DNA of 33,545 nt from Patescibacteria group bacterium (GTDB lineage Bacteria > Patescibacteriota > Minisyncoccia > Phycocordibacterales > Phycocordibacteraceae), in contig JAHJZL010000048.1 of NCBI GenBank assembly GCA_018826405.1, forward strand, positions 1 through 33,545, written 5' to 3'. The notes under the pieces are model-generated. The model worked only from the letters and a program-made list of their open reading frames with translations, searched no databases and had not been told where the DNA came from. This document shows, piece after piece, positions 15,930 to 33,545 of this stretch. The translations under genes were made by a program, and so were the position numbers. The number at the start of each line of letters is the position of its first letter. Position 1 is the stretch's first letter.

Positions 15930-15958
15930 TTGCATTTCCACGGCAGCTCTTATATAGT
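15930..15958 (+). promoter_or_regulatory. rpsL promoter TTGCAT-N17-TATAGT
   Basis: -35 at 15930-15935 and -10 at 15953-15958, with a 17-nt spacer. The same hexamers occur upstream of rplC. Confidence 0.5.
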
Positions 15959-15994
15959 GCTTTTAGCTCCCACGGGGGAGTTTTCATTTGCTGC

Positions 15995-16405
15995 ATGTCA
16001 ACAATAAATCAACTCACCAAGAAAGCCCGAAAGAATACAACCAAGAAAACTAAGGTTGTGGCTCTTGGTCGTGGATTTAATGCACTTAAGAACCGTCCTA
16101 CCTTCTATCCTGCTCCGTTTAAGCGCGGTGTATGTGTGAAAGTAACGACAAAAACCCCTCGTAAGCCTAACTCTGCTATTCGTAAGATCGCCCGTGTGCG
16201 CCTTACAAACGGCATGGAAGTAACGGCATATATCCCTGGAGAGGGACACAACCTCCAAGAGCACTCAGTAGTTATGCTTCGCGGTGGACGCGTGAAGGAC
16301 ATTGGTGTTCAGTACACTATCGTTCGTGGACGTCTCGATACTGCAGGACTTGATAAGCGCCGCCGTGGACGTTCTAAGTATGGAGCTAAGAAGCCTAAGG
16401 CATAG
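15995..16405 (+). CDS. rpsL: 30S ribosomal protein S12
   Basis: MSTINQL.., [11 protein letters not shown] and [21 protein letters not shown]. Starts at the internal ATG 15995. Confidence 0.93.
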
Positions 16406-16417
16406 TTTTAAAACATC

Positions 16418-16882
16418 ATGCGACACCCAGTAAAGAACAAGTACCCACGCCGCCCGGACCTCGTCTATCAGTCCGAAGCTATTTCACGCTTCATCAACAC
16501 TGTTATGTGGGACGGAAAGAAGGATACTGCTACTAAGCTCGTATACGATGCACTTGATATCATCAAGGCACAGGAAATGGAGCCACTTGAGACATTTGAG
16601 ACTGCAATCCGCAACGTATCTCCTCTTATGGAAGTCCGCTCACGTCGTGTGGGAGGTGCTAACTACCAGGTTCCTCGCGAGGTTCCTCAGCAGCGCCGTG
16701 TATCTCTTGCATACCGCTGGCTCATTAATGCAGCTCGCTCCCAGAAGGGAAAGCCTATGGCTCAGAAGCTCGCAAATGAGATTCTCCTTGCAGCAAAAAA
16801 CGAAGGAACTGCAATCAAGAAGAAGGACGACATGCACCGCATGGCAGACGCCAACAAGGCTTTCGCACACTTCGCCTGGTAA
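16418..16882 (+). CDS. rpsG: 30S ribosomal protein S7
   Basis: EVRSRRVGGANYQVP and KAFAHFAW at the C-terminus. Confidence 0.95.
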   Translation: MRHPVKNKYPRRPDLVYQSEAISRFINTVMWDGKKDTATKLVYDALDIIKAQEMEPLETFETAIRNVSPLMEVRSRRVGGANYQVPREVPQQRRVSLAYRWLINAARSQKGKPMAQKLANEILLAAKNEGTAIKKKDDMHRMADANKAFAHFAW

Positions 16883-16885
16883 CAA

Positions 16886-16925
16886 ACCATCAAAAGACCG
16901 CCCTACGAGGCGGTTTTTTGATGGT
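16886..16925 (+). terminator. intrinsic terminator after rpsG
   Basis: ACCATCAAAAGACCGCC-CTACGA-GGCGGTTTTTTGATGGT: a long stem with a T6 run. Confidence 0.75.
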
Positions 16926-17016
16926 ACTTATCCCTGGCAAGTACTGTCCAATGGCTTACTATTAAAAATGGGTAGCAGATCGTTGTCCGGTTGAATATTT
17001 TGTTGAGGAGGGATTG

Positions 17017-17232
17017 ATGGTTGTTTCCAAAGCAAAGCGCCTTGTTTTTGTCTGTGCTGGATGCTCGGTGCTGTTGTCAGTTCTCGTGGGCTGCGCAGGC
17101 TTTGCGGCTCATTTTTGGCCAGACCAGGCGAACAACATGCTGGTGTTTGGCGTAGCCGCCTGTACTTTGCTGGGAGCGATTGTGCTTCTGTGCGCCGCCA
17201 TTCATCTGACTTCGGCTGGCAGACTCCACTGA
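17017..17232 (+). CDS. small hydrophobic protein (~71 aa, two hydrophobic segments, possible LVGC lipobox)
   Basis: GAGGAGGG at 17005-17012. Basic N-terminus, then hydrophobic VFVCAGCSVLLSVLVGC, a second TM LVFGVAACTLLGAIVLLCAAI, and a 13-bp hairpin downstream. Confidence 0.55.
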   Translation: MVVSKAKRLVFVCAGCSVLLSVLVGCAGFAAHFWPDQANNMLVFGVAACTLLGAIVLLCAAIHLTSAGRLH

Positions 17233-17247
17233 ACCGCAAAAACAAAG

Positions 17248-17283
17248 GGGCCCGGATTGCAGCGATATGCGCAATCCGGGCCC
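17248..17283 (+). terminator. strong hairpin (13-bp perfect stem) after ORF 17017-17232
   Basis: GGGCCCGGATTGC-N10-GCAATCCGGGCCC followed by TTAAACTTT. The T-run is weak. Confidence 0.5.
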
Positions 17284-17368
17284 TTAAACTTTACATATAT
17301 AGGTTCTAGGAGTACTTTTTCAGTTCAACTGAAGTCCTTTCAGTTGGAAGTTCAAGGAGGGAAGAGAG

Positions 17369-17578
17369 ATGTCGCTTAAGAAGATGCTTGGTGTTCCGGT
17401 GCTGATTTCGGCCGGGCTCGCGCTCATCATCGCTGCCACCAATACGATCGCACATGCAGGTGGCGCGAAGACGCCCGAAGACCAGCTGGTGATCGCCTTC
17501 GGTCTCGGCGTCGGGATCTGCATCCTTTTCGGTGCTGGCTTCCTGGCTGCCTGGCCGAAGAAGCCTCAGCAGTTCTGA
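17369..17578 (+). CDS. small two-TM membrane protein (69 aa)
   Basis: AAGGAGGG lies 7 nt before the ATG. TM1 is VPVLISAGLALIIAA and TM2 is LVIAFGLGVGICILFGAGFLAA. A terminator lies downstream. Confidence 0.6.
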   Translation: MSLKKMLGVPVLISAGLALIIAATNTIAHAGGAKTPEDQLVIAFGLGVGICILFGAGFLAAWPKKPQQF

Positions 17579-17594
17579 CCAACAGAACACACAA

Positions 17595-17626
17595 GTCCGG
17601 TCGCCATGCGCGCCCGGGCTTTTTTC
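17595..17626 (+). terminator. intrinsic terminator after ORF 17369-17578
   Basis: GTCCGG..CCGGGC stem with one G-U pair, followed by TTTTTTC. Confidence 0.6.
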
Positions 17627-17697
17627 TTGCCTTTTCCTGCTGCTAAACGTATCTTATAGCTAACGCCCTGGCGGCTTTTATTTTATTTATACCTACT

Positions 17698-19845
17698 ATG
17701 AATCGCGATTATCCCCTAGAGAAAGTGCGCAACTTCGGCATCGTAGCCCACGTTGACGCAGGAAAGACGACGACCTCTGAGCGCGTGCTCTACTACACTG
17801 GCTCCCAGCACAAGATTGGAGAGGTACACGAGGGAGAGACCACCACCGACTGGATGGAACAGGAGCGTGAGCGTGGAATCACGATCACCGCTGCTGCTAT
17901 TACCTGTTTCTGGACTCGCACGAATGAGCCAGACAAAAAAGACCTTGCTAAGAAGTACCGTTTCAATGTGATCGACACGCCAGGACACATTGACTTCACG
18001 GCTGAGGTTAAGCGTTCTATGCGTGTGCTCGATGGAGCAATTGTAGTGTTTGATGGAGTTGCTGGTGTTGAGCCACAGTCTGAGACTAACTGGCGCTACG
18101 CAGACGAAGCTGGAGTGCCTCGCGTGTGTTTCATCAACAAACTAGATCGCACAGGCGCGTCTTTTGAAGACTCATACAAGTCTATTCTCGACCGACTTTC
18201 AAAGAAGGCAGTACGCGCACAGATCCCTATGGGAGCTGAAGGAGATTTTGAAGGTGTTGTAGACCTTCTTTCTATGAAGGCATTCACCTTCGCAGGAGGC
18301 ATGGGAGAGGAGGTTATTGAGGGAGAGGTACCAGAGAAGTACGTAGAAGAAGCGAAGAAGTATCGCGCAGAGTTTATTGAGCGCATCGTTGAGCACGACG
18401 AGGAGCAGATGAACGCGTTCTTTGAAGGAAACGAACCATCTCTTGAGGAGCTTAAGAAGACTCTTCGCAAAGCAGTTATTGCAAACGAAATCTTCCCGGT
18501 ATACACAGGATCTGCTCTTAAGAACAAGGGAGTACAGCTCGTGCTTGATGCCGTTGTTGATTATCTTCCAAGTCCGCTAGATCTTCCTCCTGTTAAGGGA
18601 CTTAATCCAAAGACTGGAGAGGAGATTGAGCGCTCTGCTGACGACGCACAGCCATTCACAGCACTCGCCTTCAAGCTTCAGACTGACCCATTCGTTGGAG
18701 CGCTTACGTTCTTCCGTGTGTACGCAGGAACGGTTGCCGCTGGATCATACGTATACAACTCAAACACAGGAACTAAGGAGCGCGTAGGACGTATTGTGCG
18801 CCTGCAGGCAGACAAGCGTGAGGAAGTGGACAAGGTATTCACTGGAGAGATCGCTGCTATGGTTGGTCTTAAGGACACGAAGACGTCACACACACTCTGT
18901 GACGAAGCAAACCCAATTGTGCTTGAGGAGATTAAGTTCCCTGAGCCAGTGGTGTCCCTTCGTATTGAACCAAAGACAAAGGCAGACCAGGAGAAGATGG
19001 GTATGGCGCTGCGCAAACTTTCTGACGAAGATCCTACCTTCAAGGTAACGACTGATGACGAGACTGCTGAAACTATCATGGCAGGTATGGGTGAGCTGCA
19101 CCTTGAGATTCTCGTTGACCGCATGAAGCGCGAGTTCAATGTTGAGGCTAATGTTGGTAAGCCACAGGTGGCATACCGCGAAACTATCCTCGGTGCTGCT
19201 GATGTAGACAACAAGTACATCAAGCAGACGGGAGGTAAAGGACAGTACGGACACGTGAAGATTAAGATTAAGCACCTTGAGCCTATTGATCCTGAAGCAA
19301 AGATTCCTAAGAACGTAACGCGCGAGGATCACTTCGAGTTCATCAACAACATTAAGGGAGGTGTTATTCCTCAGGAGTACATTGGTCCAGTTGAGAAGGG
19401 TATTCGCGAGGCAATGAACCGCGGTATTCTCGCTGGTTACCAGATGGTTGATGTATCTGTTGATCTCTACGACGGATCATTCCACGAAGTAGACTCTTCA
19501 GAAATCGCCTTCAAGATTGCTGCATCTCAGGCATTCCATGAAGCAGCTCAGAAGGCGAAGCCAGTTATTCTTGAGCCGATTATGAACGTTGAGGTAGTTA
19601 TCCCTGAGCAGTTCATGGGAGACATCACGGGTTCACTTTCAGGAAAGCGCGGAGCTATTGAGGGCATGGAAGATCGCGGCATGAACAAGGCAGTACACGC
19701 TAAGGTGCCGCTTTCAGAAATGTTCGGATACACCACAACGCTTCGCTCTATGACTGAGGGACGTGGGTCTATGACCATGGAGTTTGATCACTACGAAGTA
19801 GTACCAAGCAACGTAGCTCAGGACATTATTGCGAGCAGGAAGTAA
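17698..19845 (+). CDS. fusA: elongation factor G
   Basis: AHVDAGKTT, DTPGH and NKLD, with full-length EF-G domains (715 aa). Confidence 0.97.
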   Translation: MNRDYPLEKVRNFGIVAHVDAGKTTTSERVLYYTGSQHKIGEVHEGETTTDWMEQERERGITITAAAITCFWTRTNEPDKKDLAKKYRFNVIDTPGHIDFTAEVKRSMRVLDGAIVVFDGVAGVEPQSETNWRYADEAGVPRVCFINKLDRTGASFEDSYKSILDRLSKKAVRAQIPMGAEGDFEGVVDLLSMKAFTFAGGMGEEVIEGEVPEKYVEEAKKYRAEFIERIVEHDEEQMNAFFEGNEPSLEELKKTLRKAVIANEIFPVYTGSALKNKGVQLVLDAVVDYLPSPLDLPPVKGLNPKTGEEIERSADDAQPFTALAFKLQTDPFVGALTFFRVYAGTVAAGSYVYNSNTGTKERVGRIVRLQADKREEVDKVFTGEIAAMVGLKDTKTSHTLCDEANPIVLEEIKFPEPVVSLRIEPKTKADQEKMGMALRKLSDEDPTFKVTTDDETAETIMAGMGELHLEILVDRMKREFNVEANVGKPQVAYRETILGAADVDNKYIKQTGGKGQYGHVKIKIKHLEPIDPEAKIPKNVTREDHFEFINNIKGGVIPQEYIGPVEKGIREAMNRGILAGYQMVDVSVDLYDGSFHEVDSSEIAFKIAASQAFHEAAQKAKPVILEPIMNVEVVIPEQFMGDITGSLSGKRGAIEGMEDRGMNKAVHAKVPLSEMFGYTTTLRSMTEGRGSMTMEFDHYEVVPSNVAQDIIASRK

Positions 19846-19863
19846 TTTACTTCTCTTGTACAC

Positions 19864-19893
19864 AAAACCGCCTCATTCTGGGGCGGTTTTGTG
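19864..19893 (+). terminator. intrinsic terminator after fusA
   Basis: AAAACCGCC-TCATTCTGG-GGCGGTTTTGTG. Confidence 0.75.
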
Positions 19894-19907
19894 TTACGTT
19901 TACCTAT

Positions 19908-20537
19908 ATGACTAAACGAACCAAAGTATTCCTTGCTGTTTTCCTAGCTGTAGCGCTTGGCGCATACGCTTATTTGTATTGGTGGGCACATACTCCAGAG
20001 CACGGAGTCTTTGATTCAATCCCTGTTGTACGCGAAGTTTCGGATTCTCTTTCAAAGGGTGTTGTGCGGCCTGCACCTCAGGCTCCAGAAGAAGAAACAG
20101 ACACAGAAGAATCTGAAGAAGTTGGCGATACGCATTCGTATAAGACCTATACCAATACCATTCAGAAGTTCAGTGTGGACTATCCTGAGAATTGGATTCC
20201 AACAGCAACAACAGTTGATGGTGTAGTTACGCTCTGTATAACGGATACGGAGGCAACAGGAGCCTGTATGCTCACCGTTAAGAGCGAGGCCGAGAGTGTG
20301 AATGTGAGTGAAGAGAAAACATACACGGCCTTAAAGGCCGAGTACCGCGCTGGAAAGCTCACCGAGCTTGAGCGAGCTGTTGGGGGAGAAATGGGAAGAT
20401 TGCTGCGTATTTCGGGAGAACCTGCAGCAAGCCGCGTCGTTGTCTTTAGTCACGAAGGGCGCGTGTACACGATAACTGCACTTGAGGGTCAAGAATTTGC
20501 ATTTGATCGAGCAACTGAATCCTTTAAGTTCCAGTAG
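19908..20537 (+). CDS. hypothetical membrane-anchored protein with an acidic linker
   Basis: N-terminal TM VFLAVFLAVALGAYAYLYWW, then APEEETDTEESEEVGD, then a globular domain. No SD, as in the core genes. Confidence 0.6.
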   Translation: MTKRTKVFLAVFLAVALGAYAYLYWWAHTPEHGVFDSIPVVREVSDSLSKGVVRPAPQAPEEETDTEESEEVGDTHSYKTYTNTIQKFSVDYPENWIPTATTVDGVVTLCITDTEATGACMLTVKSEAESVNVSEEKTYTALKAEYRAGKLTELERAVGGEMGRLLRISGEPAASRVVVFSHEGRVYTITALEGQEFAFDRATESFKFQ

Positions 20538-20558
20538 GACTCAAAAGTAGGAGAGGAA

Positions 20559-20587
20559 AGGGTCGGCGAGAGCCGGCTCTTTCTTTG
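20559..20587 (+). terminator. intrinsic terminator with a GAGA tetraloop
   Basis: AGGGTCGGC-GAGA-GCCGGCTCT (two G-U pairs) followed by TTCTTTG. Confidence 0.6.
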
Positions 20588-20804
20588 TGCTTAGATAATA
20601 CCTATATTTTCTTGACCTTTAGTACCTGCTCGGGTACCTTAAGAAGTAACGCGAAATACGGCGCTCTTTTCAATATTCCGCTCCACTTGGAGCCTGGGAT
20701 GGCTGAAAGGCGCTGCGCGGGTTATGCCCAACGCCTTGGTCGCCTGCTTGTCAGGCAGGCGCGGCAGCATGTTATTCAGCTAGCTACCAGTAATTTTAGA
20801 ATGT

Positions 20805-22007
20805 ATGGCAGACGTATTTGATCGCAGCAAGCCGCACATGAACGTGGGTACTATTGGCCACGTTGATCACGGCAAGACGACGCTAACGGCGTCAATTCTT
20901 AATGTGCTTAACCTCAACTCTGACAAGGGCTACAAGGCTCGTGCAGAGAAGGTTGAGAACATCGACAACGCTCCTGAGGAAAAGGCGCGTGGTATTACCA
21001 TTGCACTTCACCACTCGGAGTACGAGAGCCCGAACCGTCACTACGCACACATTGACGCTCCAGGCCACGCCGACTACATCAAGAACATGATTACTGGAGC
21101 CGCCCAGATGGACGGCGCAGTACTCGTAGTTGCCGCGACCGACGGCGCAATGCCGCAGACCCGCGAGCACATCCTCCTTGCTAAGCAGGTTGGTGTGCCT
21201 CGTCTCATCATCTTCCTCAACAAGGTTGATATGGTTGACGATGTTGACATGCTAGACCTCGTTGAAGAGGAGATGCGTGAGCTTCTTACGAAGCAGGGAT
21301 ACGATGGTGCAGCTACTCCAATTATCCGCGGTTCTGGACTCAAGGCTCTTGAGGCTACGAGCGCTGATGACGAGTACGCACTTAAGGTTAAGGAGCTTGT
21401 CGATACTATGGACAGCTACTTCCCACAGCCTGAGCGCGAACTAGACAAGCCATTCCTTATGCCAATTGAGGACATCTTCTCAATTGAAGGACGTGGAACT
21501 GTTATCACTGGACGCATCGAGCGCGGAATCATCAAGGTTGGCGAGGAAATTGAGATCGTTGGTCTCAAGGACACCGTTAAGACTACCGTTACCGGTATCG
21601 AGATGTTCAACAAGCAGCTCCAGGAAGGACAGGCAGGAGACAACGCAGGTATTCTTCTTCGCGGAACTAAGAAGGAGGACGTACACCGCGGACAGGTTCT
21701 ATCAAAGGTTGGTTCTGTAAAGCCACACACTGAGTTTGAGGCTGAGGTATACATCCTCTCCAAGGACGAGGGTGGACGCCACACACCATTCTTCTCAGGC
21801 TACAAGCCACAGTTCTACGTTCGTACAACGGACGTAACTGGAGAGGTAACCCTTCCAGATGGAAAGGAAATGGTTATGCCTGGTGACACTGTTACCTTCA
21901 AGGTAAAGCTCACTGCACCAATCGCACTTGAGGACAACTTCCGTTTCTCAGTACGTGAGGGAGGTAGAACTGTAGGTGCCGGCGTGGTCACGAAGATCAT
22001 CGCGTAA
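20805..22007 (+). CDS. tuf: elongation factor Tu
   Basis: [14 protein letters not shown] and NKVD, 400 aa. Confidence 0.97.
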
Positions 22008-22030
22008 GTTTCCTGGATTATCTTACTCGT

Positions 22031-22387
22031 ATGGCTACAACCGCAAAGAAGACCGTAAAGAAAGAGGCAGCCCCAGCTGGCGAGCCAAAGCTCCGGATCC
22101 GGGTGCGTGCCTACGAGCACAAAATCCTAGATCTTTCAGTGAAGCAGATTATGGACACCGCTAATCGCTTTGATGCGAAGATCGTTGGCCCAGTTCCGCT
22201 TCCAACTGAGATTAAGCGTTGGACCGTAAACCGCTCAACCTTCGTGCACAAAGATGCACGTGAGCAGTTTGAAATGCGCATCCACAAGCGTCTTATAGAC
22301 ATCATGTCGCCAAACCCAAAGGTTATTGAGGCTCTCACGAATCTCACCCTTCCTTCTGGAGTTACGATTGATGTGAAGATGGTCTAG
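22031..22387 (+). CDS. rpsJ: 30S ribosomal protein S10 with a Lys/Ala-rich N-terminal extension
   Basis: LRIRVRAYEHKILD..VGPVPLPT..FTVNRS-like core, preceded by MATTAKKTVKKEAAPAGEPK. Confidence 0.95.
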   Translation: MATTAKKTVKKEAAPAGEPKLRIRVRAYEHKILDLSVKQIMDTANRFDAKIVGPVPLPTEIKRWTVNRSTFVHKDAREQFEMRIHKRLIDIMSPNPKVIEALTNLTLPSGVTIDVKMV

Positions 22388-22405
22388 TCCCGAGAGGGAA
22401 TAGAA

Positions 22406-22437
22406 GCAAAACCGCCCGAGAGGGCGGTTTTGCTTTA
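22406..22437 (+). terminator. intrinsic terminator after rpsJ
   Basis: GCAAAACCGCCC-GAGA-GGGCGGTTTTGC: a 12-bp perfect stem with a GNRA loop, followed by TTTAGTT. Confidence 0.8.
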
Positions 22438-22450
22438 GTTAAGCCGTATA

Positions 22451-26139: not shown

Positions 26140-26166
26140 ATAGGTCAGTTTGTATAGTGAACTGAG

Positions 26167-27051
26167 ATGAACACAGAGGAACAAACCATGACCATAAACA
26201 GCCATTCCCTTAAGGAACATGGCGTTATGAACGCTGTGTATCCTGCGCAAATTCGCAGTGGTGTACTGGAAATTCAGCGCGCCTGCGAAGCCTTTTACTC
26301 GCTCCCGCTTGAGGTTAAGCGCCTGCTTCCGTATCAGCAGTTTGATGCTGAGTCGGGAGCTGGGTACGAGTACAAGGACAACAAAAACCAGCCCGGTATC
26401 TCTCCTTCAACTCGGGATTTCAAGGAAAACCTCCACCTTAAGATGAAATATCTGGGGTGGTTGCGGGAGAAAGCAGGAGCGAGTAACGAGCCTGTTATCG
26501 TCGAGCTCGTTGAAGCGTACGCGAGTTTCATGGGACATCTTGCCCCATGGGTTAGCGAGATCGCTACGGCTATTGAGGAGCAGCACGGAATTCCGGGGCT
26601 TGCCCGTGATGTGCTCGCGAACCAAGATCTGTGGGTCCTGCGCTCGCTCCACTACTTTGGAGACCGTAACGCAGACGCAGAGCTCGCGAAGCCGCACACT
26701 GACAAGTGCTGCTTCACGCCGCACTTGTACGAGAACGACTCCGGGCTTGAGCGTCTCACGTATGAAAATGCGTGGGTGCCCATGCCAGTTGGGGAAGGCG
26801 AGACTGCCATCATCCCCGGCATGCAGTTGCAGAACATCTCGGACAACGAGCTGCGCGCAACGTGGCATCGAGTTAAGGCGAACGAGCACACTGCAGTAGC
26901 CGGCCGCTTTTCAATGGTCTGCTTCGTAACTGCGGCGAACCGTCCCTTTATCGATTCAGCTCGGGCTGGAAGGATGCAGGATCTTGGTGTCGGCAGTACG
27001 TACCGTCTGCCGCTTGAAGAAGTGAGAAAACTCTTCAAGACCTCTGAATAG
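26167..27051 (+). CDS. 2-oxoglutarate/Fe(II)-dependent oxygenase (IPNS-like 2OG-FeII_Oxy family)
   Basis: H177-T-D179 (26695-26703), H234 in TWHRV (26866-26868) and R247-F-S249 (26905-26913) match HxD...H...RxS. An alternative start is ATG 26188. Confidence 0.72.
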   Translation: MNTEEQTMTINSHSLKEHGVMNAVYPAQIRSGVLEIQRACEAFYSLPLEVKRLLPYQQFDAESGAGYEYKDNKNQPGISPSTRDFKENLHLKMKYLGWLREKAGASNEPVIVELVEAYASFMGHLAPWVSEIATAIEEQHGIPGLARDVLANQDLWVLRSLHYFGDRNADAELAKPHTDKCCFTPHLYENDSGLERLTYENAWVPMPVGEGETAIIPGMQLQNISDNELRATWHRVKANEHTAVAGRFSMVCFVTAANRPFIDSARAGRMQDLGVGSTYRLPLEEVRKLFKTSE

Positions 27052-27055
27052 TTTC

Positions 27056-27083
27056 AAAGACCCGCACATCGGCGGGTTTTTTC
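27056..27083. terminator. terminator between the convergent oxygenase and DUF3298-like genes
   Basis: ACCCGC-ACATCG-GCGGGT flanked by AAAG on the 5' side and TTTTTT on the 3' side. Confidence 0.7.
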
Positions 27084-27084
27084 T

Positions 27085-27924
27085 TTAAGGAAGATAGGTA
27101 GGAAGCACTATGTCTTCAAGCTCTGCAAAGGGAATCGCAACGCTCTGGGGGCCAAGGGCATACGGGCCAACTTGGTATGGGGGGAAGAGGAGAACAAGAG
27201 TATCTCCTTCAATAACAAAGGTCTCAAAGTTGCTTGCCTTTGGCTCTGTGCCTTGCTGCAAGTAAGAAGAATCAATGCCGGTTCCAAATTTCTCTTGAAG
27301 ATTAAAACGGACAATCTCTGAAATACGCTTAAGGTATTCAGTACGAGGACTAAACAGATCCTTCAATTTAAGCTCTGTGCCTGTCTCAGCGTCAAAGACG
27401 AAGGTTCTGTAGAAAGAGTTCGGATGTGCCCCAAAGGTGTCCATGTAGAGCGTATACACGTATGAGACGGTGTGTGGGCCGAGTACTTCGTTGTACTCAA
27501 TAGCAAGCGCTTGTTTGCGGCCGTCATCGTAGCCAAGGATCTGAATGTCCTCCTTGGTGAGGCTTGCGAAGTTCCCGTCACGCTTAAAGCTCTGAATAGT
27601 TTCTTCAATAAAGTCCCGCATGCTTTCTATGGCCTTTGTGTCTGCCTGTATGCCTGCTGACACTGCGAGAGGGGTCTCAGAAGGGTATGCAGCTTCAATG
27701 TCGTAGTATTGCGCGTGCTCCCGTATTGTTTGGGGTTCGGCAGGTGGGATAACTACAGTTTCCTCAGGAGCGGACGCATAGGGCTCTGGTGCTTGGTGTG
27801 TGGCCATATACCAAAGAGACAGACCAAGAACTATAAGTATGAGCGCACCTGCGCCGAGCAGCTCTAGTTTCTGAATACGAGTGAGGGTGTGTAGGTTCCA
27901 CATATAGAGAGAAGTATAGCGCAT
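27085..27924 (-). CDS. membrane-anchored DUF4163/DUF3298-like (RsiV/PdaC-type) domain protein
   Basis: N-terminal TM LLGAGALILIVLGLSLWYM. The C-terminus LVLLFPPYQVGPYALGPQSVAIPFAELEDIV is typical of DUF3298. No SD. Confidence 0.6.
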   Translation of the reverse strand: MRYTSLYMWNLHTLTRIQKLELLGAGALILIVLGLSLWYMATHQAPEPYASAPEETVVIPPAEPQTIREHAQYYDIEAAYPSETPLAVSAGIQADTKAIESMRDFIEETIQSFKRDGNFASLTKEDIQILGYDDGRKQALAIEYNEVLGPHTVSYVYTLYMDTFGAHPNSFYRTFVFDAETGTELKLKDLFSPRTEYLKRISEIVRFNLQEKFGTGIDSSYLQQGTEPKASNFETFVIEGDTLVLLFPPYQVGPYALGPQSVAIPFAELEDIVLPTYLP

Positions 27925-27978
27925 AAAGGGAAAGGGCCGCTCGCAGGTTGCGGGCAGCCCTTGGAAGGATCTGTTGTT

Positions 27979-28125
27979 CTACAGGTAGATTTCCGGATCG
28001 TATCCGTCATCAGAGTGCCATCGCATGATGGAATCGATGCCGTCGTCCGAAATGTCTTCTTCGGGACTGGATTCTCCAGGTCCCTCAGTGTCAGCGGCAG
28101 GGAAGCCGCCCAAGTAGTTGGCCAT
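27979..28125 (-). CDS. hypothetical 48-aa highly acidic protein (below the ORF-track cutoff)
   Basis: My own translation is MANYLGGFPAADTEGPGESSPEEDISDDGIDSIMRWHSDDGYDPEIYL*. GAGGAGGAGG at 28131-28140 lies 5 nt before the ATG. Confidence 0.45.
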   Translation of the reverse strand: MANYLGGFPAADTEGPGESSPEEDISDDGIDSIMRWHSDDGYDPEIYL

Positions 28126-28163
28126 GTATTCCTCCTCCTCAACTACTTTTTCACCCTACCATG

Positions 28164-28187
28164 AAAAAAGCCATGCGCGAGCATGGC
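28164..28187 (-). terminator. intrinsic terminator of the 60-aa ORF
   Basis: On the minus strand: GCCATGC-TCGC-GCATGGC followed by TTTTTT. Confidence 0.65.
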
Positions 28188-28197
28188 CTTGCGGTAT

Positions 28198-28380
28198 TCA
28201 GGCGAAAGAGCCTACCAGTCGTCTCACGGCCGCGTGCGGGCTTTTAAAAGGCCCTCCGAACGGCTTGAGTGCTTCAGCGCCGAATTCTTCGGTCACCTCA
28301 GCGAGTGCAGCACCCACATCAGCATGCGGTACTGGCTCCTTAGATTCTCCAGGAGCCTCTTTGGGGGTGCTTGTGGTCAC
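28198..28380 (-). CDS. hypothetical 60-aa protein (SD-bearing, GTG start)
   Basis: GGGAGG lies 5 nt before GTG 28380. The product is TTSTPKEAPGESKEPVPHADVGAALAEVTEEFGAEALKPFGGPFKSPHAAVRRLVGSFA. A terminator lies downstream. Confidence 0.5.
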   Translation of the reverse strand: MTTSTPKEAPGESKEPVPHADVGAALAEVTEEFGAEALKPFGGPFKSPHAAVRRLVGSFA

Positions 28381-28430
28381 GTATACCTCCCTCTATGAGC
28401 ACTTAGGCACCCTAGCATAGAGCCAATTGT

Positions 28431-28459
28431 TTGACACTTCCGCTTGTTTCATATAGATT
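28431..28459 (+). promoter_or_regulatory. rpsS restart promoter TTGACA-N17-TAGATT
   Basis: -35 at 28431-28436 and -10 at 28454-28459. The extended match AGCCAATTGTTTGACA is shared with the rpsN promoter. Confidence 0.5.
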
Positions 28460-28497
28460 CTATCTATCCCGCCTGGCGGGCTTTCCATTGTCTATCT

Positions 28498-28845
28498 ATG
28501 TCCCGATCCCTTAAAAAAGGCCCATACATTGACCAGAAGCTTATGAAAAAGCTCCTGGACAAAAAGCCGTCAGCGACCGGTACTATTAAGACATGGGCCC
28601 GAAATAGCCAGATTGCTCCTGAGTTTGTTGGATTCACCTTTGGTGTACACAACGGCAAGCAGCACGTAGACGTACTCGTATCTGAGGATATGGTCGGACA
28701 TCGTCTTGGCGAGTTTTCTCCAACGAAGAAATTCGTTCGTCACGGAGGAAAGATGCAGAAGCAACTTGAAGAGAAGAAGAAGGTTGCAGAAATTGCAGCT
28801 GCTAAAGCTGCTAAGGCCGCTCCTTCTCCAGCTAAAAAGAAATAG
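28498..28845 (+). CDS. rpsS: 30S ribosomal protein S19 with a Lys/Ala-rich C-terminal tail
   Basis: [12 protein letters not shown].., [13 protein letters not shown] and a [22 protein letters not shown] tail. Confidence 0.95.
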
Positions 28846-28847
28846 CT

Positions 28848-29243
28848 ATGGCATCTACAGGAACACACAAACAGCCTGCGCAGACGCGTAAGGACGAAGA
28901 CAAGAAGGCTATTCGTGCTTCTCTTTCTACATACAACCAGTCACCTCGTAAGGTGCGCCTCGTTACTGACCTCGTTAAGGGAAAGAAAGTAAATGAGGCA
29001 GTTACAGCACTCGCATTCCTTCCAAAGCGCGCCGCGCTTCCAATAAAGAAGCTTATTGAGTCTGCTGCAGCAACTGCTAAAGGACGTGGAGAGGATATAG
29101 ATACCCTCCGCATTGCAGATGTCCGCGTAGACAGTGCTGGTATGTTCACTCGCTTCATGCCTCGCGCTATGGGTCGTGCAGCTCCTATCCGCAAGCGTCG
29201 TAGCCGCATCACGCTTCGTTTGACTTCAGACACCACTAAATAA
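28848..29243 (+). CDS. rplV: 50S ribosomal protein L22
   Basis: SPRKVRLVTDLVKGKKVNEA and RFMPRAMGRA..I.KR.S.IT. Confidence 0.95.
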   Translation: MASTGTHKQPAQTRKDEDKKAIRASLSTYNQSPRKVRLVTDLVKGKKVNEAVTALAFLPKRAALPIKKLIESAAATAKGRGEDIDTLRIADVRVDSAGMFTRFMPRAMGRAAPIRKRRSRITLRLTSDTTK

Positions 29244-29244
29244 C

Positions 29245-29940
29245 ATGACACACACCGTTCATCCGTACGCACACCGCCTAGGCATCATCCGTGATTGGAA
29301 GAGCCGCTGGTTCGCTACAGACAAGCAGTCATTCCGCGAGAACATCGCTGTAGATGAGGCTATTCGCGCATACTTCAAGAAGCGTGGACGCACCATGTAC
29401 ATCGCTGATATTGAGATCGAGCGCACTGCTGCTGAGATCCGCATCCTTTTGCATACAGCTCGCCCTGGTGTTGTTATCGGACGCAGTGGAGAAAACGCTA
29501 CAAAGCTTCGTAACGACCTTACGAAACTCGTTAACTCAAAGGCAACGGGCACAAAGCGTGCAGTGAAGCTCGATATCATTGAGGTTCGCCAGCCTGAGAC
29601 GTCTGCTGCAGTAGTAGGACTTATGGTTGCTGAAGGACTTGAGAAGCGCATGCCATTCCGCCGCGTGCTTAAGCAGACTGTTGAGAAAGTTATGGCAGTT
29701 CGCGAAGTAATCGGAGTACGCATCGTAGTATCTGGACGCCTCGGAGGTGCTGACATGTCTCGCACAGAGCAAATCAAGCGCGGACGTATTCCACTTCAGA
29801 CTTTCCGTGCAAACATTGATTACGCACACCAGGAAGCACTCCTTCCGTACGGCGTGATTGGTATCAAGGTGTGGATCTACCTTGGCGAGACCTTCGCTGA
29901 CCAGGCTGCTAACGGCCGCTCAGCAGCTCCTAAACACTAA
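29245..29940 (+). CDS. rpsC: 30S ribosomal protein S3
   Basis: HPYAHRLGIIRDWKSRWF, a KH domain and GRLGGADMSRTE. Confidence 0.97.
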   Translation: MTHTVHPYAHRLGIIRDWKSRWFATDKQSFRENIAVDEAIRAYFKKRGRTMYIADIEIERTAAEIRILLHTARPGVVIGRSGENATKLRNDLTKLVNSKATGTKRAVKLDIIEVRQPETSAAVVGLMVAEGLEKRMPFRRVLKQTVEKVMAVREVIGVRIVVSGRLGGADMSRTEQIKRGRIPLQTFRANIDYAHQEALLPYGVIGIKVWIYLGETFADQAANGRSAAPKH

Positions 29941-29944
29941 TCGT

Positions 29945-30364
29945 ATGTTGTTCCCTAAGAAAGTTAAGCACCGCAAGTGGCAGACAGCTCGCAAGAGTCC
30001 TGAGAAGCTCGCACGTCCTGATACTCGTGGTATCACCGTTGCGTTTGGTTCATACGGTCTTCGTGCAACAACGCCTTCACGTGTTACTTCAAATCAAATT
30101 GAGGCAGCTCGTAAAGTACTCACTCGCGTAACTGGAAAGGGAGGCAAGCTCTGGATTCGCATCTTCCCTGATCGTCCTATAACGAACAAGCCAGCTGAGG
30201 TGGGCATGGGTAAGGGAAAGGGAGATCCAAAGCACTTTGTGTTTGAGGTTCGTCCTGGACGCATTCTCTTTGAGCTTGATGGTGTTGATGATGCTAAGGC
30301 TCGTGACGCCCTTCGCCGTGCAGGAGCGAAACTCCCTCTTAAGACAACAGTAATTACCCGATAA
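29945..30364 (+). CDS. rplP: 50S ribosomal protein L16
   Basis: MLFPKKVKHRK.., IEAARK, KPAEVGMGKGKG. Confidence 0.95.
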   Translation: MLFPKKVKHRKWQTARKSPEKLARPDTRGITVAFGSYGLRATTPSRVTSNQIEAARKVLTRVTGKGGKLWIRIFPDRPITNKPAEVGMGKGKGDPKHFVFEVRPGRILFELDGVDDAKARDALRRAGAKLPLKTTVITR

Positions 30365-30365
30365 T

Positions 30366-30560
30366 ATGGCTAAGAAACTTTCATTCAAGGACAAGAAGCC
30401 AGAGGAGATTCAGAAACTCCTCACTGAAAAGCGCGAGGAGCTTCGCTCACTTCGTTTTGCAGCTGCTGGCGCTCGTCCAAAAGATGCATCCGCTGCCGCT
30501 AAGGTCCGCAAGGATATCGCTCGTCTTCTAACTGAGGAGACCGCGCAGAAGAACGCATAA
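30366..30560 (+). CDS. rpmC: 50S ribosomal protein L29
   Basis: LTEKREELRSLRF and KVRKDIARLLT, 64 aa, in the canonical position. Confidence 0.9.
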   Translation: MAKKLSFKDKKPEEIQKLLTEKREELRSLRFAAAGARPKDASAAAKVRKDIARLLTEETAQKNA

Positions 30561-30564
30561 CCCT

Positions 30565-30807
30565 ATGGAACACACACCCGCAAAACCACAGTCATTCAAA
30601 GGAACCGTTGTTAAAACGGCAATGAAAGATACGGCTACCGTTGCTGTTTCTCGCTACGTGAAGCATCCTAAGTACAAGAAGTACCAGACACGCACGAAGA
30701 AGTTCCTTGTGCATGACGAGGGAAACACTGTTGAGGTTGGGGACGAGGTAACTATTGTTGCTTGCGCGCCTATCTCAAAACTTAAGTCGTTCAAGATAGC
30801 TAAGTAA
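30565..30807 (+). CDS. rpsQ: 30S ribosomal protein S17
   Basis: GTVVKTAMKDTATVAVSRYVKHPKYKKY..HDE.N....GD.V.I..C.P.SK. Confidence 0.93.
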   Translation: MEHTPAKPQSFKGTVVKTAMKDTATVAVSRYVKHPKYKKYQTRTKKFLVHDEGNTVEVGDEVTIVACAPISKLKSFKIAK

Positions 30808-30814
30808 ATTATTT

Positions 30815-31192
30815 ATGGTACAGCCCCAGTCAATCGTTAAAGTTGCAGACAATTCAGGCGCCAAGATCGCGCGTGTCTTCAAAGTGCTCGGGGGCTCAAA
30901 GCGCCGCTATGCAGAAATTGGAGACGTCGTTGTGGTGTCAGTCCAGACTGCAGAGCCTCGCAAGGCCGTAAAGAAGAAAGATATCTACAAGGCAGTAGTT
31001 GTTCGTCAGCGCAAGGCATTCCGCCGCGCTTCAGGTATTTACGTACGTTTTGATGACAACGCTGTAGTGCTTATTGAAAAGCAGGGTAAGGAAATGGGAC
31101 CAAAGGGTAACCGCGTATTCGGTCCTGTACCTCGCGACCTCGTTGATCGCGGATGGCAGAACATTGCCTCTCTAGCCCCTGAAGTTGTCTAA
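30815..31192 (+). CDS. rplN: 50S ribosomal protein L14
   Basis: VADNSGAK, KRRYA.IGDV, FDDNA and GPVPRDL. Confidence 0.97.
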   Translation: MVQPQSIVKVADNSGAKIARVFKVLGGSKRRYAEIGDVVVVSVQTAEPRKAVKKKDIYKAVVVRQRKAFRRASGIYVRFDDNAVVLIEKQGKEMGPKGNRVFGPVPRDLVDRGWQNIASLAPEVV

Positions 31193-31203
31193 CCTCTACG
31201 TAT

Positions 31204-31545
31204 ATGTCAAAAGCAACTCAAGGAAAGCAAACTGCAAAGTTTAAAATAAAGAAAGGCGACACCGTCGTAGTAATTTCAGGCAAGGACAAAGGCAAGACTG
31301 GTTCAGTTGAGCGTGTTCTTCGTGAAGAAGCTAAGGTTGTTGTTGAGGGTGTTGCGCTTGTTAAGCGCCACAACCGCGGACTTCGTGGTCAGACTGGCCG
31401 CATTGTAGAGAAGCCACGTGCTATCTCAATCTCAAACGTTATGATTCAGGATCCTAAGGAGAAGAAGGGAACCCGTGTTAAGCGCGAGATGAAGGATGGA
31501 AAGCGCGTTCGTGTTTCAGTTAAGAGTGGCACGACACTCTCCTAA
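31204..31545 (+). CDS. rplX: 50S ribosomal protein L24
   Basis: KIKKGDTVVVISGKDKGKTG.V (KOW motif). Confidence 0.93.
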   Translation: MSKATQGKQTAKFKIKKGDTVVVISGKDKGKTGSVERVLREEAKVVVEGVALVKRHNRGLRGQTGRIVEKPRAISISNVMIQDPKEKKGTRVKREMKDGKRVRVSVKSGTTLS

Positions 31546-32093
31546 TGAATTTGCGTATGATGATGACTAAAGAAAAACAGGCAAAAGCATTTGATGCACT
31601 TAAAGAGAAGTTCGGATACACGAACCTCTTTGCAACACCACGTCTTCAGAAGATCGTTGTGTCTTCAGGTGTGGGTAAGGCAGACAAGGCTCGTAAGGCA
31701 TTTGTTGAGAAGCGCCTCGCAACCATTACAGGTCAGAAGGCATCTCCTCGCGCGTCTAAGCAGTCTATTGCGCAGTTCAAGATGCGTCAGGGCGAGATCG
31801 TTGGGTACCAGGTGACTATGCGTGGAGCTCGTATGAATGACTTCCTCGACAAGCTCATTCATATCACGCTTCCTCGTACTCGTGACTTCCGTGGACTCTC
31901 AGCGACAGCGATTGATGAGATGGGGAACCTAACGATTGGTATTAAGGACCACACTATCTTCCCAGAGACTGCAGACGAAGATCTTAAGGATGTGTTTGGA
32001 GTTGCTGTTACGCTCGTAACAACAGCAAAGAACAAGGAAGAGGCAGAGGCATTCTTCCGCTACCTTGGGTTGCCGTTTACTGCGCCTAAGTAA
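31545..32093 (+). CDS. rplE: 50S ribosomal protein L5
   Basis: PRLQKIVVSSGVG, QVTMRG.RM..FLDKLI..LPR.RDFRGL. TAATG overlap with rplX. The exact Met is uncertain. Confidence 0.94.
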   Translation: MNLRMMMTKEKQAKAFDALKEKFGYTNLFATPRLQKIVVSSGVGKADKARKAFVEKRLATITGQKASPRASKQSIAQFKMRQGEIVGYQVTMRGARMNDFLDKLIHITLPRTRDFRGLSATAIDEMGNLTIGIKDHTIFPETADEDLKDVFGVAVTLVTTAKNKEEAEAFFRYLGLPFTAPK

Positions 32094-32111
32094 AGTTGCA
32101 GAGAGGAGTAT

Positions 32112-32137
32112 AAAAGAGCCCGGAAACGGGCTCTTTT
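32112..32137 (+). terminator. intrinsic terminator after rplE
   Basis: AAAAGAGCCCG-GAAA-CGGGCTCTTTT: a 7-bp GC stem with a GNRA loop and a T-run. Confidence 0.8.
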
Positions 32138-32163
32138 GACATATAAAGGAATGCTTGTAGTAT
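32136..32163 (+). promoter_or_regulatory. candidate promoter TTGACA-N16-TAGTAT for the lipoprotein ORF
   Basis: -35 at 32136-32141 overlaps the terminator T-run. -10 at 32158-32163. Confidence 0.42.
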
Positions 32164-32214
32164 CAAAATATTGAGTTTGGTATACAACTGAACTCTCCAA
32201 CACTGGAGGTTTGA

Positions 32215-32706
32215 ATGAAAAAGATGTTCTTTGCAGGGGCTTTGGCTCTTGCGCTTGGCGCATGTGGGGCTTCGACAACGGAGCCGCAGCGCTACGAAGT
32301 CCCGGTCGATTACCGGGAACCTGTCGGAGCCGTCGTCGTGAAGCTCGGACTCAGCACGGAAGAAGTTCCGGTGTTTGAGACCATGGGCCTCAGCGAAAAC
32401 GGCACCGGCGAGGATTTTCGCTGGATGCGCGTCGTGCGTGCGGGGGAGCTGCAGAACACCTACAGTTCCGAAAACGGGTTTCACCCCGCTGACGCACGCG
32501 AAATGCTGGCGTTCTACGCCAAGCATCCGGAAGCAGTCCCCGAAAAGGGCCTGTGTGCTCCAGGCGACCAGCTGCCGCTTGGCGAAGGGATGACGGGCGT
32601 TCCTGTCATCACACAGGCGGGTCGACTGGGTGTTTTCGCTCACGGCTGCAGCAAACCCGGTCGCAGGGTCCTTGTGGTGCGTGATTTCACTCGCTCACGG
32701 CCCTGA
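32215..32706 (+). CDS. hypothetical lipoprotein (163 aa, SD-bearing, G+C-rich)
   Basis: GGAGG lies 5 nt before the ATG. Signal peptide MKKMFFAGALALALGAC with an L-G-A-C lipobox. A strong terminator lies downstream. Confidence 0.62.
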   Translation: MKKMFFAGALALALGACGASTTEPQRYEVPVDYREPVGAVVVKLGLSTEEVPVFETMGLSENGTGEDFRWMRVVRAGELQNTYSSENGFHPADAREMLAFYAKHPEAVPEKGLCAPGDQLPLGEGMTGVPVITQAGRLGVFAHGCSKPGRRVLVVRDFTRSRP

Positions 32707-32713
32707 ACAATGT

Positions 32714-32750
32714 GGTCCCCATGCCTTCCTTGGCATGGGGACCATTTTCT
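32714..32750 (+). terminator. intrinsic terminator after the lipoprotein ORF
   Basis: GGTCCCCATGCC-TTCCTT-GGCATGGGGACC: a 12-bp perfect stem followed by ATTTTCTTT. Confidence 0.8.
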
Positions 32751-32763
32751 TTGAAGCCAATGT

Positions 32764-32792
32764 TTGACAGGCTATATTGTTACTGATAGATT
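32764..32792 (+). promoter_or_regulatory. rpsN restart promoter TTGACA-N17-TAGATT
   Basis: -35 at 32764-32769 and -10 at 32787-32792. It is preceded by AGCCAATGTT, as in the rpsS promoter. Confidence 0.5.
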
Positions 32793-32824
32793 ACATGAAC
32801 GGCTCCCCGGAGCTATTTTTTCTT

Positions 32825-33094
32825 ATGGCCAAAGCCTCACAAATCGCCCGCAACAACAAGAAGATTAAGCTTGTTGAGAAGTACGCAGAAAAGCGTGCTG
32901 CTCTTAAGGCTGCTGGCGATTGGGAGGGGCTTCAGAAGCTGCCTAAGAACTCATCTCCGGTACGTGTAAAGAATCGCTGTGCAGTTACAGGTCGTCAGCG
33001 AGGCTTTATGCGCCACTTTGGTCTTTCCCGCATCACATTCCGCGAGCTTGCTCGTGAGGGAAAGATTCCAGGTGTTAAGAAGGCATCCTGGTAA
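32825..33094 (+). CDS. rpsN: 30S ribosomal protein S14 (long form, without a zinc motif)
   Basis: [13 protein letters not shown].., RVKNRC..TGR.RGF.R.FGLSRI.FRELA..G.IPGV.KASW. It has a single Cys, so it is not the Zn-ribbon form. Confidence 0.93.
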
Positions 33095-33103
33095 TATTTT
33101 TGT

Positions 33104-33493
33104 ATGGTAACTGACCGCGTAGGAGATTTCATCATCCGCTTGAAGAATGCAGGCGCTATTGGCAAGGAAAAGATTTCCATGCCGTATTCAAAGCACGTTG
33201 AGGAAATTGCTAACAAGCTTAAGTCTTTGGGCTATGTTGGAGAGGTTTCTAAGGGGAAGGCCCCATACACCTTTGAAGTTGTACTTGCCTATGACGAGCG
33301 TGGAGAGCACAAGATCCGCGGCGTAAAGCGCATTTCAAAGCCAGGACGCCGCCTCTACACTCCAGCTGCAGAAGCACACAGTGTTAAGAACGGTATTGGA
33401 GCTCGCTTGATCTCAACTCCACGAGGAGTACTAACAGATCGTGAGGCACGAAAGCTTCGCTCAGGAGGAGAGGATCTCTTCGAGATTTGGTAA
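33104..33493 (+). CDS. rpsH: 30S ribosomal protein S8
   Basis: DRVGDFIIRLKNA.., ISKPGRR.Y and ISTPRGVLTDREAR. Confidence 0.95.
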   Translation: MVTDRVGDFIIRLKNAGAIGKEKISMPYSKHVEEIANKLKSLGYVGEVSKGKAPYTFEVVLAYDERGEHKIRGVKRISKPGRRLYTPAAEAHSVKNGIGARLISTPRGVLTDREARKLRSGGEDLFEIW

Positions 33494-33504
33494 TTACGAT
33501 TTCT

Positions 33505-33545
33505 ATGTCACGTCTCGCTAAAAAACCAATCACCATCCCTTCCAA
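33505..33545 (+). CDS. rplF: 50S ribosomal protein L6, 5' end (partial, runs off the window)
   Basis: MSRLAKKPITIPS matches the L6 N-terminus. The position after rpsH is canonical. Confidence 0.8.
   Translation, partial: MSRLAKKPITIPS

Follow-up and report, generated by a model that had tools for sequence, protein, structure and literature searches.

The str-S10-spc cluster of genes for ribosomal proteins and elongation factors (EFs) is the textbook case of gene order and co-transcription that selection has frozen. Flexible genomic islands, in which variable genes are flanked by conserved core genes, are a general concept. Within the translation cluster itself, insertions between the classical operons have been described for Gammaproteobacteria and Bacilli, and in a study of the translation operon cluster insertions made up 77 of 115 rearrangement events (PMC8046335, PMC6735719). 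Autoregulatory leaders of ribosomal protein genes are also known, for example the S10 leader of E. coli, which works by L4 attenuation, and the infC-rpmI-rplT leader of B. subtilis, which works by L20 attenuation (PMC1865079; surveys PMC3616713, PMC7247131). Here, we describe the str-S10-spc cluster in a stretch of 33,545 nucleotides (nt), called the window below, which is the entire contig C63 (JAHJZL010000048.1) of a 636-kb genome of Paceibacteria (Patescibacteria, part of the Candidate Phyla Radiation, CPR). The genome is a fragmented metagenome-assembled genome (MAG) of 83 contigs and 92.5% completeness. We found no report in the literature of a re-partition inside the S10 or spc operons, or of the rplC and tuf leaders described below, in CPR.

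In the window, the canonical gene order is kept and the cluster is interrupted at five wide junctions. Each holds a strong hairpin with a U-tract, followed by genes that are not ribosomal and by a leader with a sigma-70-like promoter in front of it. That this observation is real and well beyond chance is confirmed. The layout is probably an inherited, clade-wide re-partition of the operons with slots for accessory genes (referred to as cargo), and not a set of modules inserted in this genome. It is documented here by the anatomy of the locus, the conservation of its signals, its phylogenetic distribution, and the exact boundaries at which cargo is replaced.

Units and expression signals of the cluster

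All ribosomal and EF genes of the cluster were identified by Pfam, and Pfam and the order of the open reading frames (ORFs) agree on rpsL-rpsG-fusA-tuf-rpsJ-rplC-rplD-rplW-rplB-rpsS-rplV-rpsC-rplP-rpmC-rpsQ-rplN-rplX-rplE-rpsN-rpsH-rplF. The nearest uL2 (rplB) sequences all belong to MAGs of Patescibacteria, Paceibacterota or Parcubacteria. The genes form six ribosomal/EF units: rpsL-rpsG, fusA, tuf-rpsJ, rplC-rplD-rplW-rplB, rpsS to rplE, and rpsN-rpsH followed by rplF.

15995-16405, +, rpsL, unit 1 (15930-16920)
16418-16882, +, rpsG, unit 1
17698-19845, +, fusA, unit 2 (17627-19895)
20805-22007, +, tuf, unit 3 (20612-22437)
22031-22387, +, rpsJ, unit 3
23494-24108, +, rplC, unit 4 (23375-26141)
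24119-24859, +, rplD, unit 4
24870-25247, +, rplW, unit 4
25259-26101, +, rplB, unit 4
28498-28845, +, rpsS, unit 5 (28431-32139), followed by rplV, rpsC, rplP, rpmC, rpsQ, rplN and rplX
31545-32093, +, rplE, last gene of unit 5
32825-33094, +, rpsN, unit 6 (32764-33545, start of the unit only)
33104-33493, +, rpsH, unit 6; rplF begins after it and is cut off where the contig stops

The gaps from stop to start measure 1106 nt between rpsJ and rplC, 2396 nt between rplB and rpsS, and 731 nt between rplE and rpsN, so that these three junctions lack the tight spacing of canonical S10 and spc operons. The junctions inside unit 5 are all tight. The contig breaks off within rplF, and contig C62 carries on tightly with rplF-rplR-rpsE-rplO-secY, as in the related locus L001.

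Terminators were read directly in the sequence as a hairpin followed by a T-run, and were folded. They lie just 3' of the stop codon, consist of a GC-rich hairpin and a U-tract, and keep their position in relatives. The promoters have -35 and -10 hexamers separated by 16-18 nt, stand at a fixed distance from the gene, and are likewise conserved in relatives.

16897-16920, +, terminator after rpsG, -19.4 kcal/mol
19866-19895, +, terminator after fusA, -27.1 kcal/mol
20560-20590, +, terminator after the gene of a 209-amino-acid (aa) protein between fusA and tuf, -25.0 kcal/mol
22408-22437, +, terminator after rpsJ, -27.6 kcal/mol
26112-26141, +, terminator after rplB, -24.5 kcal/mol
32116-32139, +, terminator after rplE, -21.0 kcal/mol
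15930-15958, +, promoter TTGCAT-N17-TATAGT before rpsL, read in the sequence; 5' hairpin at 15965-15982
17627-17655, +, promoter TTGCCT-N17-TATCTT before fusA, read in the sequence; short U-rich leader
20612-20640, +, promoter TTGACC-N17-TACCTT before tuf, read in the sequence
23375-23403, +, promoter TTGCAT-N17-TATAGT before rplC, from a promoter scan; equally TTTGCA-18-TATAGT at 23374
28431-28459, +, promoter TTGACA-N17-TAGATT before rpsS, from the scan; 5' hairpin CCCGC/GCGGG at 28468-28480
32764-32792, +, promoter TTGACA-N17-TAGATT before rpsN, from the scan; 5' hairpin GGCUCC/GGAGCU at 32801-32814
about 17662, 20647, 23410, 28466 and 32799, +, transcription starts predicted from the promoters

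The scan of the region gave 34 terminator-like sites versus 18.5 +/- 4.7 in shuffles. The cargo genes also carry terminators of their own. The word TTGACA-N17-TAGATT occurs exactly twice in the 636-kb genome, before rpsS and before rpsN, where about 0.08 occurrences are expected by chance. TTGCAT-N17-TATAGT occurs three times in the genome, and two of these sites are those before rpsL and rplC. The rpsS and rpsN modules have in common only the -35 box and the extended -10 consensus, while their spacers and leaders differ; the restart modules may or may not derive from a single portable cassette. No Rho homologue above the family cut-off was found in the genome (best 31.7 bits versus 509), an absence that is provisional at 92.5% completeness. 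If it holds, hairpin terminators would be the main route of termination.

A sequence-only reading of the window had described much of this anatomy. The canonical gene order it gave is that found here, and so are its strong terminators after rpsG, fusA, rpsJ, rplB and rplE (its positions are right to about 10 nt, and the folds range from -19 to -28 kcal/mol), its terminator closing the gap between fusA and tuf, and its sigma-70-like restart promoters before rplC, rpsS and rpsN. The non-ribosomal genes that it placed in every break are also present where it put them: two membrane ORFs, an anchored protein, an orphan pair, an oxygenase with a DUF3298 gene and mini-ORFs, and a lipoprotein. Its count of at least seven units is reached only if units of cargo are included; the ribosomal/EF units in the window number six.

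Two side observations concern genes of the cluster. rpsJ (22030-22069) and rplD (24118-24157) open with a similar Lys-rich N-terminal extension, MATTAKKTVKKE… versus MATPAKKTVAKK…, and the DNA of the two extensions is 78% identical across 40 nt. In the locus L002, the genes upstream of tuf (L002:1-2700) match rpsG and fusA of the window at only 50-54% protein identity; L002, otherwise near-identical, has a different or paralogous arrangement there.

Conservation of junctions, signals and leaders

The cluster was compared in 80 loci around uL2 from named genomes and in 80 loci from an even sample of the phylum. Cluster genes were located by tblastn, and a junction was counted as occupied when its gap was at least 300 nt. 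Three groups were distinguished, namely the family-level clade of the window, the rest of a 72-locus clade with 100% support, and other Patescibacteria. Occupancy in these groups, in that order, is as follows.

rplB-rpsS: 26/26, 29/43, 2/79
rplE-rpsN: 18/24, 10/23, 0/77
rpsJ-rplC: 20/24, 16/44, 23/67
rpsG-fusA: 13/14, 4/6, 14/47
fusA-tuf: 14/17, 15/15, 35/61

Occupancy of the remaining 14 junctions is at or near zero. The splits between rplB and rpsS and between rplE and rpsN are derived traits of the clade, whereas those at rpsJ-rplC, rpsG-fusA and fusA-tuf are common across the phylum; no split is peculiar to this genome. On the tree, the state changes between occupied and tight 8 times at rplB-rpsS, 6 times at rplE-rpsN, and 25 times at rpsJ-rplC. 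The sequence-only reading had called the splits at rpsJ-rplC, rplB-rpsS and rplE-rpsN unusual. This is borne out for the latter two, which are unusual for bacteria and even for most Patescibacteria; rpsJ-rplC is often occupied across the phylum.

With a site counted if it lay within 80 nt of the stop codon (random windows give a background of 2%), terminators were compared across 26 close relatives. In the family clade they follow rpsG in 11 of 14 loci, fusA in 12 of 17, rpsJ in 22 of 24, rplB in 26 of 27, and rplE in 19 of 24 (71-96%). The remaining genes of the cluster had no terminator behind them in the family clade (0 in about 24 loci for each ribosomal gene, and 0/24 for tuf), and in other Patescibacteria none was found after rplB (0/79) or rplE (0/77). 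Both these terminators and the promoter-leader modules persist in a clade whose members may share as little as about 65-75% uL2 identity.

Before fusA, tuf, rplC, rpsS and rpsN, the modules of promoter and leader are near-identical in relatives whose adjoining spacer DNA is unrelated, and the hexamers, their spacing and the leaders are all kept. For example, the promoter and leader of rpsS are present in 24 of 24 close loci. The window was aligned by blastn with L001 and L002, whose flanks are 84-94% identical, and with L003 and L007, at about 77-80%. Homology to these loci breaks off at terminator ends (16923, 22432, 26102-26141 and 32077) and picks up again at -35 boxes (23373-23392, 28406-28429 and 32762). 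Conserved signals stand at all five junctions, and the claim that the cluster is partitioned by arrangements of terminator, spacer and promoter is supported. The further, implied claim, that inserted modules cut a canonical cluster in this genome, is not supported, because the terminators and promoter-leaders belong to the ribosomal units and are kept clade-wide. The initial interpretation as insert modules is therefore only partly right.

The leaders carry 5' GC hairpins that begin within a few nt of the predicted transcription starts. The stems of these hairpins vary by compensation; before rpsS, for example, CCCGC/GCGGG is replaced by CUCGCGC/GCGCGGG. 5' hairpins are known to protect mRNA in other bacteria, and a homologue of RNase J is encoded in the genome (C39:3623-5275, 478 bits); together with the position of the hairpins near the start, this fits a protective role. 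In the compact relatives L015, L023 and L024, a single hairpin with a U-tract lies between rplE and rpsN, and the promoter either adjoins the 3' end of rplE or falls within it, which suggests that the leader hairpin may also stop read-through. The 5' hairpins are proposed to stabilize the mRNAs, to insulate them against read-through, or both. At other TTGACA-type promoters of the genome (C18 near 3560 and C47 near 12357, both on the minus strand), a GC hairpin, a U-rich tract and an ATG likewise follow. The 5' hairpin leader is therefore a genome-wide expression design and not specific to the ribosomal units.

Two leaders are longer and structured.

23410-23493, +, rplC leader, about 85 nt, with helices P1 and P2 and a terminator-like P3 followed by a U-tract
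about 20647-20804, +, tuf leader, about 160 nt, structured and conserved

In the rplC leader, 5 of 7 pairs of P1 and 4 of 4 pairs of P2 show compensatory change, and shuffle and slid-partner controls score lower; it is a conserved structure with covariation. In an alternative helix, a conserved CAAUGGnCG pairs with the 5' half of P3, which would exclude P3. Both of these mutually exclusive helices fit the alignment, with 97.7% of the cells paired for the alternative and 80.6% for the other; the alternative has a single compensatory pair. The motif ACCAAUGG ([AG]ACC[AT]AUGG) precedes rplC in 17 of 25 loci of the family, 10 of 47 of the rest of the clade, and 0 of 76 other Patescibacteria, and is restricted to the Paceibacteria clade. 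The leader has the shape of an attenuator and, on evidence that is still incomplete, may be one that is controlled by a protein. The tuf leader is probably the 5' leader of the tuf-rpsJ unit. In an alignment of 14 relatives, 9 of its 36 predicted pairs show compensatory change, and it consists of a long-range helix and a second hairpin without a terminator. A permissive Rfam scan of 15500-33545 gave no match for either leader and no known ribosomal protein leader, only sub-threshold terminator look-alikes (16885-16926 and 26017-26157; Leu/Phe leaders, RsmY).

Contents of the accessory-gene slots

The five spacers, numbered as slots in the order of the cluster, contain the following features.

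16924-17626, +, slot 1 (between rpsG and fusA); homology to L001 is lost over 16924-17238
17017-17232, +, hydrophobic ORF of about 70 aa with a Shine-Dalgarno (SD) motif, slot 1, followed by a hairpin at 17248-17283
17369-17578, +, hydrophobic ORF of about 70 aa with an SD motif, slot 1, followed by a hairpin at 17593-17625
19908-20537, +, N-terminally anchored protein of 209 aa, weak PsbP_2 match, without SD, host-like GC content, slot 2 (between fusA and tuf, 19908-20590)
22477-22647, -, SD-bearing orphan ORF with its own hairpin, divergent, slot 3 (between rpsJ and rplC, 22438-23373)
22818-23318, +, SD-bearing orphan ORF with its own hairpin, divergent, slot 3
26167-27051, +, 2-oxoglutarate (2OG)-Fe(II) oxygenase, slot 4 (between rplB and rpsS, 26142-28430)
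27057-27086, both strands, bidirectional terminator, slot 4
27085-27924, -, DUF3298 membrane protein (Pfam family), slot 4
27979-28125, -, acidic mini-ORF, slot 4
28198-28380, -, acidic mini-ORF, slot 4
32136-32163, +, promoter-like site from the promoter scan, slot 5 (between rplE and rpsN, 32136-32763)
32215-32706, +, lipobox protein, SD-bearing and GC-rich (61%), slot 5
32712-32752, +, terminator, slot 5

Most of this cargo changes between close relatives. The spacers of the 80 related loci contain 367 ORFs that reach a length of 50 aa, and 257 of these have no homologue in any other spacer. Just three families come back at a constant position, namely the DUF3298 gene, which is found between rplB and rpsS in 24 loci and always antisense (minus strand), the PsbP-like protein between fusA and tuf in 5 loci (the window, L001, L005, L007 and L008), and the oxygenase family between rplB and rpsS in 5 loci (the window, L012, L013, L016 and L027). 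Slot 3 has no homology to L001 or L002, although its flanks are 88-94% identical to theirs in DNA; it is wholly different in the three closest genomes, and none of the 80 related loci yielded a homologue of its orphan pair. Compared with L001 and L002, the oxygenase gene is an indel: it is exactly the segment that both lack. Homologues of the lipobox protein were found only in L001 and L002, at 72-74% identity versus 95-99% for the flanking ribosomal proteins. The terminators that flank the oxygenase gene (26112-26141 and 27057-27086) are of like type, AAAG-CCCGC…GCGGG-U-tract, and slot genes could be lost or gained through recombination between hairpins of this kind.

The cargo also differs from the ribosomal genes in composition. 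Variable cargo (17017-17578, 22477-23318, 27979-28380 and 32215-32706) carries strong GGAGG-type SD motifs, and variable cargo in the window is GC-rich, at 0.55-0.61 versus a genome mean of 0.482 +/- 0.035. The ribosomal, DUF3298 and PsbP-like genes have U-rich leaders without SD and a genome-typical GC content (0.48). In close relatives, strong SD motifs precede 34 of 155 cargo ORFs versus 1 of 411 ribosomal gene starts. The 3' end of 16S rRNA, which holds the anti-SD, was not found in the MAG. The oxygenase is atypical in third-position GC content (GC3 of 0.63 versus 0.44 +/- 0.07). It belongs to the generic iron/ascorbate (IPNS-like) family, with 3on7 and TropC as the best solved relatives (E about 1e-5), and is not of the JmjC or prolyl-hydroxylase type. 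The DUF3298 protein has an N-terminal membrane anchor, resembles extracytoplasmic RsiV/esterase domains, and is encoded antisense to the cluster.

Most of 109 cargo proteins searched have no Pfam match, and the matches of the others are of mixed kinds, among them pilins, NlpC/P60 and M15 peptidases, SH3, HIT, SDR, NUDIX, NADAR, a SocA antitoxin and bPH_2. The idea that the cargo consists mostly of secreted or membrane proteins is not supported, given that an N-terminal hydrophobic segment is present in 36% of cargo ORFs versus 32% of all ORFs of the genome. Marks of an integron or mobile island, i.e. an integrase or transposase, attC or flanking repeats, and a tRNA target, were not found: the window has no integrase, transposase or tRNA gene, no MITE-like, flanking direct or dispersed repeats were detected, and the 25 listed of 40 cargo Pfam families in relatives include no integrase or transposase. 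Cargo shared by two loci is more similar than their core proteins in 1 of about 85 pairs and is usually far more diverged, e.g. 37% versus 95% identity. This rules against recent transfer of cargo between the sampled genomes and fits either fast evolution or replacement from unsampled donors.

Taken together, the DUF3298 and PsbP-like genes are old, host-like residents, and most other cargo is young, lineage-specific, and replaced wholesale even between genomes about 90% identical. The sequence-only reading had named an ancient, fixed arrangement in relatives as grounds for its own refutation; the breaks and two inserts (DUF3298 and PsbP-like) are of this kind, and the other cargo is not.

Proposed organization, alternative explanations and known systems

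In the organization that we propose for this clade, the str-S10-spc supercluster would comprise six transcription units, with the genes still in their ancestral order. Each unit would have its own sigma-70-type promoter, a conserved leader, and a strong intrinsic terminator at its end. The leader would consist of a 5'-proximal GC hairpin, a U-rich tract without a Shine-Dalgarno motif, and the AUG, the leaders of rplC and tuf being longer and structured. The hairpins are predicted to terminate and the promoters to fire, so that a terminator upstream and a promoter downstream would insulate each unit. With the units insulated, spacer genes could be gained, lost and swapped without polar effects on essential genes, and the spacers would serve as accessory-gene slots in a genome with almost no other free intergenic space. 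The breaks and signals are old, and the cargo is mostly young. A bolder combined proposal, possible but on balance doubtful, is that the spacers are cassette bays reloaded by homologous recombination, with the ribosomal genes as homology arms for DNA that is taken up, and that the leaders are new regulatory RNAs (rplC with its terminator and anti-terminator helices, and the tuf leader of about 160 nt) through which ribosomal proteins or EF-Tu would give feedback to each module.

Several points weigh against the proposed re-partition. The function of the promoters and terminators is predicted from sequence. Taken as a class, promoter-like sites are no more frequent in the region than in shuffles (13 versus 12.6), and the case therefore rests on position and conservation in relatives and not on raw counts. 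The 209-aa gene starts about 20 nt past the fusA terminator, without room for a promoter, which means that some read-through or an internal promoter is needed there and that at least one terminator is leaky or bypassed. The absence of Rho is provisional in a genome that is only 92.5% complete. Gaps were measured from tblastn edges, which makes small gaps approximate, and the phylogeny, computed from three proteins with FastTree, has many forks with weak support, so that it is uncertain how often splits were gained or lost and in which direction.

The close spacing after fusA is also an argument for a cluster that is still co-transcribed, in which the hairpins would be leaky attenuators or processing or stability elements, read-through would dominate, and the cargo would ride along (operon concatenation). 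Co-transcription across operon borders has been documented for this cluster in other bacteria (PMC6735719), and the single hairpin with a U-tract between rplE and rpsN in L015, L023 and L024 suggests that one element may serve both roles. However, the terminators are strong (-19 to -28 kcal/mol) with long U-tracts, near-consensus independent promoters are conserved at every restart, and read-through would collide with the conserved antisense gene unit between rplB and rpsS; we therefore regard dominant read-through as unlikely. A recent, genome-specific invasion, in which self-contained mobile modules of terminator, gene and restart promoter were inserted in a formerly contiguous cluster, would agree with cargo that is mostly orphan and differs from relatives about 90% identical, and with the high GC content and the SD motifs of several cargo genes. 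It is at odds with breaks that are clade-wide, with terminators and restart promoters that stay with the ribosomal units in relatives bearing different or hardly any cargo, with the old and host-like DUF3298 and PsbP-like genes, and with the failure to find an integrase, transposase, tRNA, or flanking or dispersed repeat. As applied to the breaks themselves, it is largely refuted, and we consider it very improbable overall.

It is only slightly more plausible, and still improbable, that the resident genes are kept for a function linked to the ribosome, for example an oxygenase that hydroxylates a ribosomal protein or a DUF3298 gene co-regulated with translation. 2OG oxygenases that modify ribosomal proteins exist (YcfD/RoxA and OGFOD1), the DUF3298 gene keeps its slot and orientation in 24 loci, and oxygenases of the same family lie in slot 4 of four other loci. 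Yet the oxygenase is a generic IPNS-like member with atypical GC3, L001 and L002, the nearest relatives, lack it, and a role as ribosome hydroxylase is not supported; the DUF3298 protein is membrane-anchored, RsiV/esterase-like and antisense. Finally, a fragmented MAG of 83 contigs could in principle contain a chimeric contig through errors of assembly or binning. The probability of this is negligible, since the same order and breaks occur in dozens of independent MAGs, the window is continuously collinear with L001 over 17 kb, and contig C62 takes up where the window stops inside rplF. The same layout in more than 25 assemblies from different studies excludes misassembly.

An inherited re-partition with accessory-gene slots would show that the operon map of essential genes can be rewritten with gene order intact, and where a 0.6-Mb genome places accessory genes that change rapidly. 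For CPR, ribosomal blocks are often taken to be contiguous in binning and phylogenomics; here the contiguous blocks are short, with spacer genes of odd composition between them. The conserved leaders are candidate regulatory RNAs, and the promoters, 5' hairpins and terminators are candidate native expression signals for organisms without genetics yet.

Among described systems, the window resembles the inter-operon insertions in that the gene order of the supercluster is kept and unrelated genes (<10 kb) are lodged between transcription units. Those insertions lie mostly between classical operons, such as str and S10, with nrdHEF inside the rpoBC operon as an exception. In contrast, all five sites of the window lie inside the str, S10 or spc operons of E. 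coli and Bacillus (rpsG-fusA and fusA-tuf; rpsJ-rplC, rplB-rpsS and rplE-rpsN) and are operon boundaries only in the predicted operon map of this lineage. Furthermore, every new unit carries a conserved promoter, leader and terminator of its own, and the partition is fixed in the clade while the content of the slots is hypervariable. The slots are like flexible genomic islands in their fixed positions, their content that differs between close relatives, and the sharp boundaries that conserved sequence sets, but they measure only 0.3-2.5 kb, with one to four genes each, are set within the gene cluster that is most conserved in bacteria, and lack the tRNA, integrase and repeat hallmarks. Like the L4 and L20 leaders, the rplC leader is conserved, structured and covarying; it may form either a terminator-like hairpin and U-tract or an alternative helix that would sequester the 5' half of that hairpin. 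As a putative regulatory leader, it differs by its position before rplC and not rpsJ, the lack of a matching Rfam family, and the clade-restricted ACCAAUGG motif.

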